DNA from: Octopus vulgaris
Taxonomy: Eukaryota
Assembly: GCA_951406725.2 (NCBI GenBank)
Contig: OX597821.1
Location: 42,098,001-42,162,000, forward strand
DNA: 64,000 bases
Direction: 5' to 3'
In this document: positions 29,588-63,939 of the stretch, in pieces
How positions within the stretch are numbered: the stretch's first letter is position 1
Layout: the number at the start of each line of letters is the position of its first letter
Program-made: the position numbers and the translations under genes
The notes under the pieces: generated by a model
Seen by the model: the letters and a program-made list of their open reading frames with translations, nothing else
Databases searched by the model: none
What the model was told of the DNA's origin: nothing

Positions 29588-30979
29588 CTATGCTGACGAC
29601 CTTGCTCTAATTGATGAGTCACTATCAGAACTAGAGGAGAAGTTTCAAGTGTGGAAACAAGGATTAGAATCGAAGGGCTTTAGAGTCAACTTAGCTAAAA
29701 CCAAAGTCTTAATAAGTAGGAAGGCAAGCAAACCACAAATCCCTTCAGGTAGATGGCCCTGCTCAATTTGTAGAAAAGGTGTAGGTAGAAACTCTATAAG
29801 ATGTACCCAGTGTAAGCTATGGACACATAAGAGGTACAGCAATATCAAAGGAAGGCTAACTGGGAAGATAGTTTTTGTGTGAGGTAGATGCTCAGGAGCA
29901 ATAAACACTGAAAATGTGCAGACAACAACTTCTGCTACATTCCAGGGAGAAAAACTAGAAGTAGTGATAGCTTCCGTTACCTAGGTGACCAAGTCAGTAG
30001 CAGGAGAGGTTACACTGAAAGTGTAGCTGCTAGAATAAGAATAGCATGGGCTAAGTTCAGAGAGCTCTTACCTCTGCTGGTGACAAAGGGCCTCTCGCTC
30101 AGAGTAAAAGGTAGACTGTATGGCACATGTGTACGAACAGCCATGCTACATGACAGTGAAACATGGGCCGTGACTGCTGAGCACATGCGTAAGCTCGCAA
30201 GGAATGAAGCCAGTATGATCCGATGGATATGTAATGTCAGTGTGCATACTCGACAGAGTGTAAGTACCTTGAGAGAAAAGTTGGACCTAGGAAGTATCAG
30301 ACGTAATGTGCAAGAGAGATGACTGCGCTGGTATGGTCATGTGGCGAGAATGGATGAGGATAGCTGTGTGAAAAAGTGTCACACCCTAGTGGTTGAGGGA
30401 ACCTGTGGAAGAGATAGACCCAGCAAGACCTGGGATGAAGTGGTGAAGCACGACCTTCGAACATTAGGCCTCATCGAGGCAATGACCAGTGACTAAGACT
30501 TTTGGAAATATGCTGTGCTTAAGAAGACCCGGCAAGGCAAGTGAGACCAAAACCTTGTGTCCTATGCCAGGTGTGTAACCAGCCCACTTGTGCGTACCTT
30601 CCCTTCATTGGACACTTCTTGTGAAGACTTGTTGAGGCAAGTGAAATCGAAATCAAATTCGATGACTGGCATCCATGCTAGTGGAGCACTAAGAGCACCA
30701 TCTGAGCGTGATCGTTGCCAGAGTGGCTACCTGGCATTCATGCCAGTGGCATGTAAAAAGCACCATTTGAGCATGATCGTTACGATTTTTTTGTGGCACA
30801 TAAAAGCAGCCACTACACTCTCGGAGTGGTTGGCATTAGGAAGGGCATCCAGCTGTAGAAACTCTGCCAGATCAAGATTGGAGCCTGGTGCAGCCATCTG
30901 GTTTGCCAGTCCTCAGTCAAATCGTCCAACCCATGCTAGCATGGAAAGCGGACGTTAAACGACGATGATGATGATGATG
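29588..30979 (+). mobile_element. 5'-truncated RTE-clade LINE (RT from YADD onward, PHD insert, 3' UTR, (GAT)n tail), pseudogenised
   Basis: YADDLALI...[11 protein letters not shown]...FRYLG...ARIRIAWAKFREL...LRWYGHVARM...RPSKTW, with stops and a frameshift near 29965. Ends GGACGTTAAACGAC(GAT)n. Confidence 0.92.
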
Positions 30980-33655: not shown

Positions 33656-35537
33656 TTATATCAATACACATCCTCATAATCATTATCTTTTGATGTCCCT
33701 GTTTCCAAGCTGGCATGAGTTGGATGATTTTGACAGGAATCGATGAGCCAGGGGGCTGCACCAGGCTCCTGGTGTCTAGTTTGGCAGGTTTCTACAGCTG
33801 AATGCCCTTCCTAATGCCAACCATTTTACACTGTGTATTGAGTACTTTTTTACATAGCACCAGCAGCAGGACTCATCAAGTACTCACAAGACCCCTCAAC
33901 TCAGTTGAGTAAAGTCTTGAGGGATGTGAAACTATGGTACAGGGACAGGAGCGAGTGTCTTGCTGAAGAGGTGAATACACAGATTATTCTCTAGCTGGAG
34001 AGAGAGAGAGATGGTAAGAGTGTACCTTCAAGCTACAAGATGAATACGGGAGAGAGAATAGGGGATAGAAGATCAGAAAGGGTGGGTGGGTAGGTAAATG
34101 CAGCAGAGTGTGAAAAGAATGAGATGAATGATTAGAGGAGGGTGGTTGAGGTAGAAACGAGTGAATATCAGTTTATGGGAGGAGAAGTAGGAGTGGGTCT
34201 GGGAGGAGGAGGTGATAAGGGACAGTGACTGGGATACAATGTGACTTTGCTGTTGTTGTTTAGCCCTAGTCAGACTATTGTTGTTAAAGACATTCCAACC
34301 ATGACTACATTGTCAAAAGTGCGATTCCTTTGTGTTAAGACAATGGGGGATGACGCAAGTGAGCTTTGGTTGCTTTTCTAACATTTCTGCTATTTTTGTA
34401 TACAACCTCACATAATCAATAAAGTCTAATGGAAATATTTGGCCAGAAGGCCAAAGCTGCCCAAATTCTATTCTAAATTATTAAATCAGATTAACAGTAG
34501 AGCCTTTGCTGGCACCATGTCAAAACTCCCATGCTGGTGTCACATATAAAGCACCCAGTGGACTCTGTAAAGTGGTTAGTATTAGGAAGGGCGTCCAGCC
34601 ACAGAAACCATGCCAAAGCAGACAATTGGAACCCGGTGCAGCTTTTTGGGTTGCCAGCTCCTGTCAAACTGTCCAACCCGTACAGGAAAGACAATAGTCA
34701 TTAAAGGATGATGATGATGGAAGTAGGAAGAGCAAGGAATGGGACAGTCTACCCTAGGCAATGCTGTTATGGCGGGAAATACTTTTTGGTCTGCTGTATT
34801 AACCTGTAAGGGCTGCATTGGCCGAAAGAGGGTGTGGCAAACTCAAACGCAGTCGCTGGTAGCGCTCCCTCTATACCTACGCCACTGTAGGTAAAAAAAA
34901 AGGACAGGTACAGATATGGCAAGAAACAACTGTAAGTTTACAGAAATAATGCATCACCGTTAATTTTAACTATTTGTCTTGTTTATCCCATGTGATCTAT
35001 GGAGCATATTATTCCCCTGGCATCCAGGCACCAGATCTGATATGCATCCCCAATTTTTATTTCAACCACGAGAATAACTTGGGAATTATGAATGGAAAGA
35101 TTGATATTACTCTTAACTTATTAAACAAGGTTAAACTAAAGGTCTGAAACAAGAATGGACGTTTGGGACATCATCATCATCATTTAGTGTCCATGTCCAT
35201 TGTCCATGCTGGCTGCGTTGGGCTGTTTGACAGGAGCTGACAAGCTGGAAGGCTGCACCAGACTCCAGTCTGATTTGGCATGGTTTTCTACGGCCAGATG
35301 CCCTTCCTAACGCTAACCACTCCGAGAGTGTAATGGGTGCTTTTACGTGCCACCAGCATGGGTACCATATGAAAATGCTTTGGACAGGCAAAGAGTTAAT
35401 GAGAAGGAAGTAAGTTGAGAGAAATTTGGCTGTTGTTTCTAGGAGTTTGAAAACCTGTTTTGATTTTCTTATTAATCGGAGGAATCAAGGAGTTGTAATT
35501 TAATCCTAATTGGGCAAATCTTTTATAGACTATCCAA

Positions 35538-40536: not shown

Positions 40537-40735
40537 TGTTAGACAAAACCAGGACAACTCAAATTCCATAGGTCGATTAGCTCTAAAAATAGGCCCTATC
40601 TTTGGCAAACAACCAAAATTTCTTGCAGAATATTAATCACTTCTTTCTTGAGAAGATAAACTTTAAAAACTGAAATATCAACAAAAAACACTTAAATATT
40701 CAACATGTTGTCCTTTTAAAAAAAAAACATCCAAC

Positions 40736-40741
40736 TTTATT
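40736..40741 (-). terminator. candidate polyadenylation signal of the KLHL21-like gene
   Basis: AATAAA on the minus strand, followed by U/GU-rich sequence, about 1.43 kb past the stop. Alternatives exist (e.g. near 41006). Confidence 0.35.
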
Positions 40742-41002
40742 CGCTGTGAGTTCAAAAATTGTTACATTAAAAAAAATTGTTATTCAAATCAAATTTCACT
40801 TTTTTGATTTTTTAGTGTAAAATTTAATACAATTTATATTTTGTAAGGCCACAGCACAATTGCTGAGACCATGAAAAGAGTGTGTATGTTCATGAATATA
40901 TACACACACACACACACATATATATATATACATATATATACACACATATTTATGTATATTTATATATGTGTGTGTGTGTGTGAGAGTGTGCATGTGTATA
41001 TA

Positions 41003-41035
<33 letters not shown>

Positions 41036-41529
41036 CATACAGACACACACACACAAACATGTATTTTTTTATGCATGTATATTGGGCAAAAAAGGAATAG
41101 AATTTTTTTTCTTTTAAATAGAATTTAAAGGAATACAGACTGTTTTAATAAACCATTCAGAATTCAAAATTATTGAAGGAAAATGTCACAGAAGTTTCAC
41201 ATTAAATTATAAGAGAAATATAAACATATATATATTATATTATATATATATATATATATATACACTGGAGTTTAAAAATCAGAAATCAAACAGGTACTGA
41301 AATTAAATAAATTATAAGAAGAAATATAACAGAGCACAACAAAAAAATATTTGATAAAATAAGCATATTGAGAATAAATAAAGAAACATTATGTTTAGCA
41401 TATATGTCTGTGTGTCTGTGTGATAATTTACACAGTAAATGCAACTATGTCAAAGACTGACCCCAACAAAGACAGTCACTGCAATTATATCACAGATATG
41501 GTCCCATGAACACAGTCAAAGCAGGCATG

Positions 41530-42190
41530 TTGCAGACCTAATCACAAGAAGTCAGTCCATGCTATAGGTCGGAGTAACATGTTAGCATGTGAGACTGTCA
41601 TGTAAGCACACATAGCACGTTTGCTGAGCTTCTTTGGAGACTTCAACATGTGTAGATTGGCAAGCAAAGTGTGCTGCACATCTAAGTCACACACAGATTG
41701 TCAAGCAAGTATGGAAGGATCTAATTAGTTATGTGTGGACTGTCAAGCATGGAAGGATCTAATTAGTTGTGTGGACTGTCAAGCAATGATGAAGGGGCCT
41801 AGTCACATGTGGTGTGTCCAGCAACAGAGGAAATGACCTTGTCACAAGTGAACTGTGTGATGTTTAGATGAAGGGACCTAGTTAACATGTGGACTGTCAA
41901 GCGATGGGGAGTGGAAGAAAATCTAGATGTGGGTTAGTCTGTTAAGCTAGAACACTCGGATACATGTATGAAGCAAAGAAGAATAAACCCAGTCACAGGT
42001 GAAGAGTTAGTCCTGTGGTAGCCTAGTTACAGAGAGTCTGCAAACCTAGGACAAGATCTATTGAGACTGTCAAGCAGGGATGGAGAATTGGTCACAAATG
42101 GATTGTCAAGCAGGAACAAGAGGGACCTAGTCAAATAGGGATTGTAAAAACGAGAATGAATGAATTTAGTCATATGTGAACTGTTAGACA
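41530..42190 (-). repeat. degenerate ~39-nt tandem array matching the gene's terminal codons and stop (about 12+ units)
   Basis: Minus-strand consensus TGCTTGACAGTCCACATGTGACTAGGTCCCTTCATC versus the CDS end TGT CTA ACA GTT CAC ATA TGA CTA AAT. Confidence 0.85.
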
Positions 42191-43939
42191 GGCATGTGAC
42201 GACCTCGCTTGGCTCATGCTCGTCTCTTCGGTCCATTCATTTGTCGAAGGATCGTAACATTCCACACACTGTGATGGCACCGAATTCTCTACATCATGTA
42301 AACCACCAGCAATGTAAATTTTACCTCTTAATATACTAGCACCACTGTTAACATGAACATGTGGGACATCAGGTAAGTTACGGAATGTTCGTTTCTCAGG
42401 GTCAAGGGTGAGCACTTTGCGGCTATCTTCCCATATAATATAAAATACGTTGTCTAGCACTAAAATCTGAGCATATCGTATAGAATTTGGCAGCACATAT
42501 TGCTCTCCGCTAGGATTAAGTGAAGCACCATTACAAACATAGGTTTCTATTGTATTCACACACTGGCCACCTTGCAGGCCACCAACCTCTAGAATAATGT
42601 CTTCATATGGTACTATTCTGGCCAATGTCCTTGGAAAGCGGCTTTGACCAACTTCCTCCCAAGTATTGGAAATAGCATCATAACGTTCAATAGGCTTTAA
42701 GTCTTTTATATCATGTTCTTCTCCATAGCCAACACCACCAATCACATAGACACAATTGTTCACGGAAGTAGAAGCATGACGTGCACGAGGTTGGGGCATT
42801 GCTTTCACACTCTTCCACTCTAATTTAATACAATCAAAATGCCACACATTGTCCACGATATGACCATCGTGTATTCCTCCAGTTACAATGAGTCCAGTGG
42901 TTAACATAGCAACACTATACTGAGAAAGAGATTGAGGAATATCAGGGAGACTAGTCCAACGATCTTTCTGAACATCATACATTTCCACAGACTGAGTTAT
43001 ATAACTGTTCAATCCACCAACAACCACCAAAACCTCTTTGGCAACAGTAGATGGTCTTGGGTGAACATTATTGTTTTGCATGCTACGACGACGCTTACCT
43101 TGTTGATTCGAGACAGACTCATGTTGAATTTGAGCCTCACGAACCATATTCAGGCAATCGCTTTGATTAGAAATTACCGGGTCACTTTCAATTTCTTGCA
43201 GGTAGCCGAGATCCACAATTGGAAGACGAACTTGTTGTAGAAGGCATGTAAGATGTTGTTTTCTCTCATCAAGGTCATACTTTACCCAACGCATCACAGC
43301 ATCATAAACCACCTCTTCTTTGCGTACATCAATCAGGTCACTAGACGTGTAAGTCAGTAATCGATCTATTGACAAGTCCAAAAATTCATCACTCTTGACA
43401 ACCATGCTAAAGTTTTCCAGTGCAAACTTATGCGCATCGTTCTGCAGATCATGACATGAGTGAACCTGAGCATATTGCTCAATACCCAGACAATTATTGT
43501 GGTCAAGCTGACGGCGAAGAAACTCACAACAAGCACTAACTATGTCGGGATATTCAAACAGACTGCCTGCTGCTAAGAGCTGAAGGGCATTTTCGGCGTT
43601 GATAGCAATCCGTCCACTATAGGCATATTCAATGACACGTTTTAAAGTCCAAGGAGACACTTCACTAATGCAGATCCTAGATTCATGGCTTTCTCGTAAG
43701 TCACTGGTAAACATAGCTTTAAAATAAGGACTGCTAACAGCCAGCACATTTCGGTGGCAAGGAAATTCTTCGTGTTGCACGCACAGAATGGCATCGGTAA
43801 ACGTCGCTTCAATACGCAACGAATCAAGTCTTTTAACAAGATCCAATGTATAATTAGGGTTTTGAAGCAGGTACTGTTGATCTGAAGATAAGTCTGGGCT
43901 ATTCATTGTACTCATGGCTCTGTACATGAGTTGGAACAT
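42170..43939 (-). CDS. KLHL21: Kelch-like protein (BTB-BACK-Kelch, Cullin3 E3 adaptor), KLHL21-like, intronless CDS, 589 aa
   Basis: BTB FPCHRNVLAVSSPYFKAMFTSDLRES, BACK EEVVYDAVMRWVKYD, GG-containing kelch repeats. PRPSTVAKEVLVVVGG and FYIIWEDSRKV...HVHVNSGASILRGKIYIAGG resemble vertebrate KLHL21 (PRPSTGLAEILVLVGG; YFVRDDSAEV...QVHVGGSLAVLGGKLYVSGG, recalled). The family is certain; orthology is probable. Confidence 0.93.
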   Translation of the reverse strand: MFQLMYRAMSTMNSPDLSSDQQYLLQNPNYTLDLVKRLDSLRIEATFTDAILCVQHEEFPCHRNVLAVSSPYFKAMFTSDLRESHESRICISEVSPWTLKRVIEYAYSGRIAINAENALQLLAAGSLFEYPDIVSACCEFLRRQLDHNNCLGIEQYAQVHSCHDLQNDAHKFALENFSMVVKSDEFLDLSIDRLLTYTSSDLIDVRKEEVVYDAVMRWVKYDLDERKQHLTCLLQQVRLPIVDLGYLQEIESDPVISNQSDCLNMVREAQIQHESVSNQQGKRRRSMQNNNVHPRPSTVAKEVLVVVGGLNSYITQSVEMYDVQKDRWTSLPDIPQSLSQYSVAMLTTGLIVTGGIHDGHIVDNVWHFDCIKLEWKSVKAMPQPRARHASTSVNNCVYVIGGVGYGEEHDIKDLKPIERYDAISNTWEEVGQSRFPRTLARIVPYEDIILEVGGLQGGQCVNTIETYVCNGASLNPSGEQYVLPNSIRYAQILVLDNVFYIIWEDSRKVLTLDPEKRTFRNLPDVPHVHVNSGASILRGKIYIAGGLHDVENSVPSQCVECYDPSTNEWTEETSMSQARSSHACLTVHI

Positions 43940-45825
43940 CAGTAGTCTTTGAAAAGTTAATTATCACAACAAAGCTGTTAAAACAATTGTCACAGCATTG
44001 AAATAGTTAAAAGAGCAAAAAGGTGCGCCTGTAAGAGCAGCGGTACTTTGCAGTGACTGGAACTTCATACAGCGGAGGTAACAAGTTGCTACTTCCTGAA
44101 AACACGTGTGGATGGTCTCCAATCAGCCTTTTCAGTTCATAGTTTTATGATTTTAAATAAACAGTAAATGGAAATGGCTACAAAAGTTGTTTTATCTTCC
44201 TTTCTTTCTTTTTTTAATATAACTTGTTGGTTTACATTTAATAAAATTAGAGAAAGGAAATATCTTTCATATTTCAAATGAAGTCAGGTGTCGATCGCCA
44301 TCAAGTTGAAATTGGTTTCGAAGTTAAACAAAATGAAAATTCACTGAGTTTAAAGTTGATAAAATAAAATGTAAATTGAATTTAAAGTCAAAAGTTTACA
44401 TGTTTTGTAAGGAAATGAAGATAAGTAAGTGGTCGTTTTCTTTAGATGTCTTTTTTTTTTTAACAATTATGGAAACCAGATAAAAAAAAAAGAAGAGTTG
44501 AGTTCGAAAGGGAGAAAAAGTCAATCAGAGATTAAGACGGTGACTTGAGGGGATTGTTGAGATTTTGCGTTCGAGGAAGGAACGAATTGTACCCGTAATT
44601 AACAGCTTCTTGGATGGCTGGAGGCAAAAATAGGAATTGACACGGAAATATATAATATTGATATATATATATATATATATATATAGTGGGGGGGGGCAGT
44701 AATGACAAACTAACAAGTTGCAATCACGTTACTAACCTGTAATTTCTGCCAGTAATGACACAACCACCAGAAAAGGTCACGTCTATAATTCCAAGATATA
44801 CTCGATGCTCTACACACACCAAAAAAAAAAAAAAAAAAAGGGGGATTCGCACTTCAGTCTTTGCAAAACAACAATATCAAGAAATTAAAATTATCCAAAT
44901 TTTTTTCCCCACTCTTCTTTAAAGTTTTCACTTCTTTTAAATATTGCTTTTGTTATTTTTGTGTGTGTGTATGTGTGTGATAGCAGCGGCGGCTTTGTTG
45001 TATATTTATTTTCACCCGCAGGTTATTTTCGATCCTTTCAGCTAAGAGGACGATTTACTCCGCCCTTAAATTTGGGTCCAATTCACTTGCAGATATATAT
45101 ATTACTGAAGTAGAGTATTTTCTGGAGGGTATAATTCCTCAATACATCACTTATGCATATATATTATCAACGTAGGTGCGTATTTCAGCTGTCATTTAAT
45201 TAAAGATTAATTGTAAAAGCTTTCGATATAAATATGAAATTTAACAACGTTTATGCTGTTTTCCGCTAAAAGAAAAAGATAAATGTAGAGAAAAGTAATT
45301 TCATTTGGCCCCGATATACAGAATATTCATTTTTCCGTAGCTGAAGGTGACGAACAGTTCATAAAGGTTTAATAAACTTGATGGTTTCAATAATTCAAAC
45401 AAATAATAAGAAATATGCAATTTGGTTTTTCGTTTTGTGTTGTTTTTCCTTCGAAACAAATTTCCAGGGAGTTTAGTGTGACCCCTATTCAAAGATTGCA
45501 GGGAGAGAGAGTGAAGTGCGTGCCGTAGCTATTGCACCTATAGTAGTCGCTGTTGGTTGTATGCTTCGGTACAGGCAACAAATACAGGAATTATTTGCGT
45601 GAAGCGGATGCCGCCTCGATTATTATTATTCCACAGGCTTCAGGTTCGGGTACAGCCAATGCACAAGTATCTTTCTATCACAAAAGCAATTCAAATTAAA
45701 GACAGCGGGCTGCAGAGTATGACCGACCGGGAATCAAATTTGCAGCCCTGACAAGAAGCAGAAATGTTGTGAACAGCCTCCGTTCGTTAATATCATAGTA
45801 GTTGCGACAGTTTTAGCGGCGCCTG

Positions 45826-62244: not shown

Positions 62245-63939
62245 TTCAGTAGTTTTATTTTTAGAGCGTGCTTTCACTTCACTACCGAGCGCAGCTCTGT
62301 GTGCCTTGGATATGTGCTGTGATTTGTTGTAATGCTCTGATGGTTATTGTATGGAAAGTGTTCTGCGTAGGTTGTGTGAAGTACCTAGTAGTGCAATTTT
62401 CTGTATGTTATATGTGTTTGTAAGTCCTGGTGTTTTTGTTATGTATTTGTCTGAATATTTTTTATCATGCCTAATGCACCTACTATGATAGGAATTGTTT
62501 CTGTTTTTAGATTCCACATTCTGGTTACCTCTATTTCCAGGTCTTTGTATTTTGAAAGTTTCTCCATTTCTTTTAGAGACACGTTGCCATCTGCTGGTAT
62601 TGATACATCAATTAGAAAGCATTTTTTTTCTTCATGATCTCTGACAACTATATCTGGTCTGTTGGCCTTAATTTCTCTATCTGTGTGTATTGGCATATCC
62701 CAGAGTATGGTTGCTTTCTCGTTTTTTTGTGACCTTTTCTGGTGTGTGCTTATACCATCTTTTTTCTGTTGTTATTCCATAATGTTGGCATAGCTTCCAG
62801 TGTATGTAGGTCCCAACTCTGTCGTGTCTGTGAATATATACCTTCTTAGCCAGGACTGGGCAACCAGAGATAATATGATTTATTGTTTCTTGTCCATCTC
62901 CACATATTCTGCAGCTACTTGTTATATTTCTTTTCATTACATGTTTTTGGTAATTTCTGGTGGGGAGGCTTTGGTCTTGTGCTGCAATTAAAAATCCCTC
63001 TGTCTCTGCTTTGAGTCCTGAGCTTCTCAACCATTGCTGGGATTTTTCTTTGTCTATTTCTTTTGCGTTTAGTTTAGTCCAGTATTTATCGTGGAGGGGT
63101 TTTTCTTGCCATCGTTTTATCATGGTTCTTTGCTGTTCTAGTTTTAGTTTGGATTTCATTTGTTTTATAGCTTTTGTTGTTTCTTCTTCTTCTTCTTCTT
63201 CTTCTTCTTCTTCTTCTTCTTCTTCTTCTTCTTCTTCTTCTTCTTCTTCTTCTTCTTCTTCTTCTTCTTCTTCTTCTTCATATTTGTTAGGTGGTATGAT
63301 TTCTTGTTTGTATTTGTCAGCTTCCTTAAATACTGAGAACAGTTTCTTGTTTTGCTCGTGTTTTGCCGCTATTTGTATCAGTTTTCCTTCCTTCTGAAGT
63401 AGATATTTTTGCAGTCCTATGGTGGTTATTTTATAGTAGTTTTCCAGCTGTATAAGGCCTCTACCACCTTCTATACGTTGTATATATAGTCTTTCTATGT
63501 CAGATTTTGGGTGATGCATCCTAGATCCTGTCATTATTTTTCTTGTTTTCCTATCTATTTTGGTCAGTTCATTTAGTGTCCAGTTAAGGATATTGTAGCT
63601 GTAACTTATAACTGGGACGGCTAAAGTGTTAATACCTATTATCTTGTTTTTAGCATTGAGCTCTGTTTTTAGTATTGATCTAACTCATCTATAATATTCT
63701 TTTTTTATTTTCTCTTTCATTTGTGTGTGTTGTGTCTTATCTAGTTCATGGATTCCTAAGTATTTGTAAGTTTGACTTTGGTCTAATTCTTTTATTTCAT
63801 TGGTTTTATCTAGTGTGATGTTTCTACTCTTAACTAGTTTTCCTCTTTTCAGGGTTACTTTGGCGCATTTTTCTAATCCAAATTTCATATCTATTTCTTT
63901 GGTAAATCCATGAACTGTCTTTAATAGTGTTTCCAGCTG

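Follow-up and report, generated by a model that had tools for sequence, protein, structure and literature searches.

A tandem array seeded at the stop codon of an octopus kelch gene, probably an old and decaying duplication with a leaky stop context

Introduction

Among vertebrates, translational readthrough at a UGA stop followed by CUAG has been reported for AQP4, OPRL1, OPRK1, MAPK10, MDH1, LDHB and VDR, all of which share a motif kept throughout the vertebrates and have had their readthrough measured (PMC4132726, PMC5868278; both sources in part). The shorter context UGA-CUA, which an earlier note on the DNA described here had taken to be leaky, is indeed documented as such, with about 1.5% readthrough by itself in HEK293T reporters (PMC4132726, the same excerpt). 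In the fruit fly, the gene kelch encodes a BTB-Kelch Cullin-3 adaptor in which an in-frame UGA past the propeller separates ORF1 from a long ORF2, so that the product passes from 76 to 160 kDa; according to the excerpted preprint, a stimulatory 3′ stem-loop is present, and readthrough is high and restricted to neurons (bioRxiv 10.1101/2020.06.22.165522).

More than one stop can be read through in the same gene. Thus, 35 of 353 Anopheles candidates are described as cases of double readthrough, with five of triple readthrough; these genes and their Drosophila counterparts have successive in-frame stops in leaky contexts and are defined by cross-species coding signatures between the stops (PMC5100048, in part). 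In the same excerpt, abundant readthrough is found only in Pancrustacea, molluscs are not mentioned and nothing is said of ladders produced by duplication of the stop region. As to the fate of the products, hydrophobic extensions are cleared via SGTA-BAG6 in worms and mammals (PMC10364623, in part). Finally, minisatellites in 3′ UTRs can have head-to-tail units of about 40 nt, as does the DAT1 VNTR with its 40-bp unit (PMC1325255, in part).

A literature search returned nothing on KLHL21 in octopus and, judging by titles, nothing on readthrough in cephalopods. The locus described below lies in a stretch of 64,000 nucleotides of Octopus vulgaris (contig OX597821.1, positions 42,098,001 to 42,162,000), referred to as the window, whose own positions are used throughout.

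The kelch gene and its transcript

An intronless BTB-BACK-Kelch ORF occupies positions 42170..43939 of the minus strand (ORF list and Pfam), with 589 residues if read from the ATG at 43939 and 585 if read from the ATG at 43927; the frame is open without interruption from 43960 to the stop at 42170. Matches to Pfam BTB, BACK and Kelch_1 lie above the cut-off and follow the BTB-BACK-Kelch propeller order of KLHL proteins, which places the product in that family. Its predicted structure has a pLDDT of 84.6, and KEAP1, KLHL3 and KBTBD2 are its relatives in the PDB. The name KLHL21 is used here as a label only, since it is the database label of near-identical proteins, and some relatives are labelled KLHL24. 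One residue separates the protein from P0121, labelled as O. sinensis, and six from P0001, labelled as O. bimaculoides; about 57 relatives score above 190 bits, and those with a name come from molluscs, annelids and nemerteans. The gene and its 3′ stretch are single-copy in the genome, and the only other kelch match there (L003) has no array.

The terminal position is tightly kept within the family: 94 of the 97 relatives scored for it (P0001-P0057 and P0121-P0160) stop 20 or 21 residues past the last Trp, the exceptions being a fragment, a distant protein three residues longer and the old gene model P0124. None of these 97 relatives has a stop-to-sense extension running into the array. The extended O. 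bimaculoides model P0124 was considered in this regard and rejected: its tail derives from positions 35034-35114 of the minus strand of the window (89% match), 7 kb away from the array, and is probably an artefact of an old gene model or assembly. It was also observed that the terminus of this KLHL family takes the form ...M-stop or ...M-C-stop, with TGA aligned with the Cys codon in a nearly fixed column (94/97).

A single 2811-nt contig of run X1 corresponds to positions 41272..44075 (minus strand); it covers the CDS together with the entire array and matches the window there letter for letter. The array probably belongs to the 3′ UTR of the transcript. No run is recorded as RNA; we infer that X1 is probably RNA from an automatic guess at its type and from the fact that contig sets of 30-115 million letters hold this 2.5-kb stretch of a 2.8-Gb genome. 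At least 91% of the words of the stretch are contained in 19 of the 24 listed runs. In X15, from one very close relative, five substitutions and one 3-nt insertion are seen in 3 kb, of which three substitutions and the insertion fall in or just below the array and none in units 0-5; the stop-1 motif is unchanged, and the number of units is identical in X1 and X15, these being two runs only. The matches of X21 and X22, from other organisms, are short pieces (that of X22 is a 44-nt piece of CDS). Independently of this, contig depth in X1 drops from 70 to 12 on the upstream side of 44075 (44075-44490). A pyrimidine-rich AG lies close by, at about 44096, and the drop may mark a 5′ UTR intron or the start region.

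The array and its stops

Immediately at the end of the gene lies a degenerate head-to-tail array (41630..42192; this and all positions in the array refer to the minus strand), which consists of a CDS-end unit and 14 copies of 32-41 nt, with a modal length of 39 nt. The earlier note had described a 3′ UTR array in which the gene repeats its C-terminal codons together with the stop, made of about 12 degenerate units of some 39 nt and reaching 41530. Tiling and the comparison with the majority unit confirm this composition, the degeneracy and the modal length. On the other hand, tiling counts about 14 copies beyond the CDS end and reaches from 42192 to 41630, with only faint, unscored pieces between 41630 and 41530.

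The units are 50-92% identical to the column majority (the highest value cited, 92%, is that of unit 8), and pairwise identity is mostly 40-75%. Wraparound profile tiling gave a score of 288 versus 79-127 in 12 shuffles, the real run having used a chosen seed and 8 rounds and the shuffles a random seed and 5 rounds. A 30-nt segment at the stop recurs four times with at least 60% identity within the next 700 nt, compared with a mean of 0.06 in shuffles, none of which (0/200) reaches four; in addition, a repeat search recovered an 8-copy family. No signal over shuffles was obtained with fixed-lag autocorrelation, which indicates that the array is very worn. The nhmmer profile E-values are circular, as 9 of the 12 array matches were seeds; the non-seed copies have E-values of 0.057, 0.11 and 5.1. 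With head-to-tail units of 10-60 nt beyond chance, the array is a tandem repeat of the minisatellite type. This unusual, stop-seeded array is real.

Unit 0 (42154..42192), the source of the array, comprises the final six codons of the gene (C-L-T-V-H-I) with their true stop, followed by 16 nt of 3′ UTR. Reading on in frame, the sequence offers (i) stop 1 (42170..42172), UGA followed by CUA A; (ii) stop 2 (42131..42133), UGA followed by CUA G, that is, the full motif; and (iii) stop 3 (42092..42094), UGA followed by CCA, where the motif is broken and the C at +4 is retained. The first stop is thus a UGA followed by CUA, as in the UGA-CUAG readthrough genes, but reads UGA-CUA-A; the G of the seventh base is missing there and found at stop 2. 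These stops delimit three potential readthrough segments, whose translation is predicted: segment 1 (42134..42169; 12 codons) is strongly hydrophobic, with a mean Kyte-Doolittle value of 2.0, compared with 1.1 for segment 2 (42095..42130; 12 codons) and 1.2 for segment 3 (42023..42091; 22 codons). The last one is closed by a UAG at 42025-42023, which corresponds to the TAG within the CTAG of unit 4 and not to the stop column of that unit. The stops placed by the earlier note at 42170, 42131, 42092 and 42023, together with their contexts and the in-frame translation, were exact, and the spacing of 13 codons follows from a 39-nt unit that contains the stop. In turn, its statement that later units are mostly out of frame applies to 5 of the 12 alignable copies; the other seven are in the CDS frame, four of them later ones. 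Nine of the 15 unit lengths are multiples of three.

Some additional features were noted in the window. A 12-bp hairpin is predicted at 42022-42050, in units 3-4; the UAG that closes the frame lies in its 3′ arm, and its z of -0.98 is not significant. A 69-aa ORF in another frame (42027-42236), which overlaps the CDS end, spans units 0-4 and has an AUG overlapping the stop (AUGA), was discarded for its lack of a homologue. The one protein match of the read-through peptide, P0162, was also discarded: it is an unrelated 93-residue repeat ORF scored by summation. Farther away, two ORF fragments (62680-63684, minus strand; 29912-30319, plus strand) presumably resemble the ends of reverse transcriptases of LINE-type retrotransposons.

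Age and origin of the array

The majority reading of the copies is C-L-T-V-H-M-stop, with the stop in the context UGA-CUAG. Over these six codons, the present CDS end differs from the majority at all four synonymous sites and at 1 of 14 non-synonymous sites (M>I). Terminal H-I occurs in 6 of 95 relatives, all of them within the octopod cluster that includes Argonauta, and H-M or N-M ends are common, M being far more frequent than I as the last residue. The P0002 cluster (79% identical), which probably represents squids and cuttlefish, ends in C-L-T-I-H-M, and both squid-type and bivalve-type relatives retain the terminal M. Since the majority has M and the relatives retain it, the array copied the end of the gene as it was at an earlier stage. 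On the simplest reading, the array would predate the M>I change and, hence, the split between Octopus and Argonauta.

Units 11 and 12 (41710..41786) form a recent duplicate pair (93% identity over 30 nt), an apparent sign of turnover later than the founding of the array. This pair, and the 72% identity of unit 5 to the CDS end of today, mean that turnover went on and that the copies cannot be treated as independent. An origin from a dispersed repeat or transposon was rejected: the genome contains a single match to a 701-nt stretch of the locus, and the two matches to a 16-nt unit word both fall within the array.

Orthologues and other kelch loci

Orthologues were compared at four distant, non-cephalopod-like loci whose 3′ ends were covered (L005, L007, L008 and L009; 48-51% identity), and neither the array nor UGA-CUA was found at any of them (0/4). 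Their stops read TGA-TAT, TGA-CCT, TAA-GGC and TGA-TCA, respectively. L007 ends in ATG-TGT-stop and L008 in ATG-TGC-stop, while L005 and L009 end in ATG-TGA; UGA and the terminal Cys codon are, therefore, one change apart. Two further observations concern L007: (i) 11 nt of its 3′ UTR (L007:2332-2342), about 65 nt past the stop, match the core of the unit found in octopus, as a single copy and possibly by chance; and (ii) a 36-nt tandem array of 8-9 copies (L007:44-377) lies upstream of the coding match of the orthologue.

As a control, 47 of 80 kelch loci were used, namely those with a match reaching the C-terminal region, some of which are near-duplicates or have short downstream sequence. 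Stop-spanning tandem arrays were present in two of the 47: L061 (2244-2350), where a 43-nt unit is repeated 2.5 times across the TAG-CAA stop of a kelch-like gene, and L079 (1686-2574), where a 98-nt unit is repeated 9.1 times (94% matches) over the last 33 codons of an unrelated kelch gene. The stop of L079 appears to arise where its first copy meets the second, and the array may have replaced the original C-terminus. Since periods of 43 and 98 nt are not multiples of three, no ladder is possible at either locus. These two arrays could be assembly artefacts, though their copies differ among themselves.

Evaluation of the possible explanations

The preferred explanation, to which a probability of about 0.55 is assigned, is an old and mostly decaying duplication whose leakiness is a by-product. 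It agrees with the alternative of a repeat seeded at the stop, which fits best among the options that the earlier note had raised. According to this explanation, a 39-nt segment across the stop would have been duplicated, through slippage or unequal exchange, in an ancestor of the octopods that still had the terminal Met now replaced by Ile, and would have been tolerated, with all later copies dropping into the 3′ UTR. Duplicating a segment across the stop does no harm, since protein and stop are unchanged by the presence of the first copy. In-frame stops in a leaky context, 13 codons apart, result from a unit length divisible by three and an ancestral UGA-CUAG stop. The copies would now be decaying with little selection on the encoded residues. 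By extrapolation from mammalian reporters, stop 1 would leak on the order of 1-5%, yielding a 13-residue hydrophobic tail likely to be cleared by quality control of the SGTA-BAG6 type; products that pass two stops would be about 0.02-0.25% (computed as about 0.02% at the published rate of about 1.3-1.5% for the bare motif and 0.25% at 5% per stop). In this sequence of events, the age, the neutrality, the leak and the clearance are what we infer.

Readthrough might instead be selected, which is possible but unlikely: a leaky stop 1, and possibly stops 2 and 3, would be retained so that a regulated fraction (e.g., neuronal) of a Cullin-3 adaptor carries tails of 13, 26 or 49 residues that alter its stability, location or binding, the ladder being ready-made by duplication of the stop. 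A true ladder of several rungs, in which octopods duplicated the leaky UGA-CUAG together with the terminal strand and the first rungs were selected, giving nested tails that each end in a copy of the family terminus, is the part of this proposal that we regard as quite unlikely. In its favour, the first three stop contexts are kept beyond neutral expectation. A neutral simulation with the substitution spectrum of units 4-14 (substitutions only, without indels) preserved the CUA of stop 1, the UGA-CUA of stop 2 and the UGA-C of stop 3, along with the two open frames, in 0.6% of 40,000 runs, and in 0.03% when the terminal pattern was added. Consistent with this, none of the 16 mismatches in the 39 nt of unit 1 falls inside UGACUA (P 0.03), and the UTR part of unit 0 has none in CUA (P 0.21); however, direct contrasts among copies are not significant (TGA retained in 2/2 vs 4/12, P 0.16; another, P 0.27), and the motif lacks its G at stop 1 and its U at stop 3. 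At the peptide level, the hydrophobic-T-hydrophobic core is found in 7/7 in-frame versus 1/5 out-of-frame copies (Fisher 0.010; 0.015 without the duplicate), but this contrast vanishes over the whole hexapeptide (BLOSUM P 0.18; second position P 0.25). Moreover, to reach three of these seven in-frame copies a ribosome would have to pass 9-11 stops, UAA among them. Likewise, a gapped alignment gives a coding-like 7/2/11 mismatches by codon position, while the ungapped count for segments 1 and 2 is 9/6/11 (P 0.22), their BLOSUM score has a P of 0.23 against the neutral simulation and their pN/pS versus the majority is 0.63 (segment 1: pS 0.56, pN 0.41; a within-array proxy of low power). No coding signature was thus detected between stops 1 and 2 with this low-power proxy (P 0.22-0.23), and MDH1 and LDHB likewise have none between their stops in the portion of the literature considered. 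The family terminus, conserved in 94/97 relatives, could matter as a motif, and the copies mimic it. Segment 1 has lost its Cys and His. Also in favour of selection, the array has held a period near 39 nt, with no microsatellite seen inside, despite its apparent age, and the fly kelch and the mosquito double and triple cases provide precedents. Against it, folding versus shuffles gave no stem-loop 3′ of stops 1-3 (z +1.05 and +1.34 at stop 1, +0.56 at stop 2, and -0.24), so that a stimulatory element of the Drosophila kelch type was not found, and the UGA-CUA context is absent from the distant orthologues (0/4). The argument of the earlier note that the copied strand could help to close the propeller fails because readthrough adds residues past the native last strand and never replaces it: the AlphaFold2 model keeps a confident strand at 579-585, to which the tail is appended, with pLDDT below 50 at 588-634 (a weak result for a tail with no aligned sequences). 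As the criteria in favour of selection were picked after the data had been seen and the copies are not independent, these signals are hints, not proof. The functional serial ladder of the earlier note, then, found little backing, with no significant peptide constraint, no 3′ structure and distant orthologues that lack both array and context.

Two other explanations leave aside the usefulness of the tails. One of them, which is improbable, treats the array as a landing strip at the RNA level, where an RNA-binding protein or a microRNA recognizes the repeated short words and so adjusts the stability or location of the mRNA, the frame being irrelevant. The array and the CDS do lie together on one probable transcript contig, the best-preserved copies include some that are out of frame (unit 8, 92%), GCTTGACA occurs six times in the array and ACUAAY, a QKI/STAR-type motif, occurs four times against 0.4 expected (P 0.0005). 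Nevertheless, recurring words are expected of any repeat, two of the four ACUAAY belong to units 11 and 12, recently duplicated, and one or two changes are enough to turn the unit into ACUAAY. Furthermore, no block of columns is invariant across the array, no Rfam family matches it and, among the Euprymna miRNA matches listed, the complements of ten distinct array words are not at seed positions. A pairing of miR-153 with TGTGACTA of the unit was rejected, as it involves only the middle of the microRNA and not the seed; TGACTAG, in turn, presumably resembles the start of miR-279, on the wrong strand for targeting this mRNA. The other explanation, very improbable, is that the UGA is recoded through A-to-I editing (UGA to UGG) or selenocysteine insertion. 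Cephalopods edit RNA heavily; ADARs disfavour a 5′ G, and stops 1-3 lie in unstructured RNA and are preceded by precisely that base. Stop 4 (UAG) does lie within the predicted 12-bp hairpin, but the z of the latter is only -0.98, and the X1 and X15 contigs, which drop rare variants, show no difference at any stop. A difference of A>G type at 43686 in X15 (H>R) was rejected as editing, since the genome-derived P0121 has the same change. Regarding selenocysteine, the octopus UGA shares a column with a terminal Cys in 16 of 95 relatives, which is the pattern of Sec/Cys pairs; yet a single TGY>TGA change explains this column, past the UGA, L005, L009 and the window have unrelated sequences and no conservation is seen, and a search of 40600-42400 against Rfam gave 29 matches at E<=1, none of them a SECIS and none inside the array.

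Significance

If the array is the neutral, decaying duplication preferred here, it represents a natural record in which the UTR preserves an older C-terminus and stop context of its gene, and it shows that stop-spanning duplications, seen in 2 of 47 other kelch loci as well, can mimic a readthrough ladder. If it is selected, serial readthrough would have arisen in a single step by a new route, the duplication of a leaky stop; it would then be placed in molluscs, outside the insects and crustaceans where abundant readthrough has been described, and the locus would offer a compact subject for readthrough tests in cephalopods.

Comparison with known systems

As in the vertebrate UGA-CUAG genes, stop 1 of the octopus gene is UGA-CUA, stop 2 has the full CUAG and the majority unit reads UGA-CUAG. 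In contrast to those genes, with their vertebrate-wide motif and measured readthrough, the octopus gene is known from sequence, has no G at stop 1 and shares its context with none of the four distant orthologues (0/4); besides, its downstream stops are duplicates of the first one. The likeness to the ORF1-UGA-ORF2 arrangement of Drosophila kelch lies in the type of protein, a BTB-Kelch Cullin-3 adaptor, and in the in-frame UGA past the propeller. But while the fly gene has a long ORF2 and a stimulatory stem-loop, the octopus segments have 12, 12 and 22 codons and no predicted structure. With the Anopheles and Drosophila genes in which two or three stops are read through, the octopus locus shares successive in-frame stops in leaky contexts; those genes are defined by signatures across species, whereas the evidence from the octopus array consists of single-genome proxies with mixed results.

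As for repeats, the octopus array resembles 3′ UTR minisatellites such as the DAT1 VNTR in its head-to-tail units of about 40 nt, although its unit number does not change between the two runs that cover it. The arrays of L061 and L079, like that of the octopus, start inside the CDS and repeat the stop. Compared with the DAT1 VNTR, L061 and L079, the octopus array is far more degenerate and combines a triplet period with a leaky stop context.
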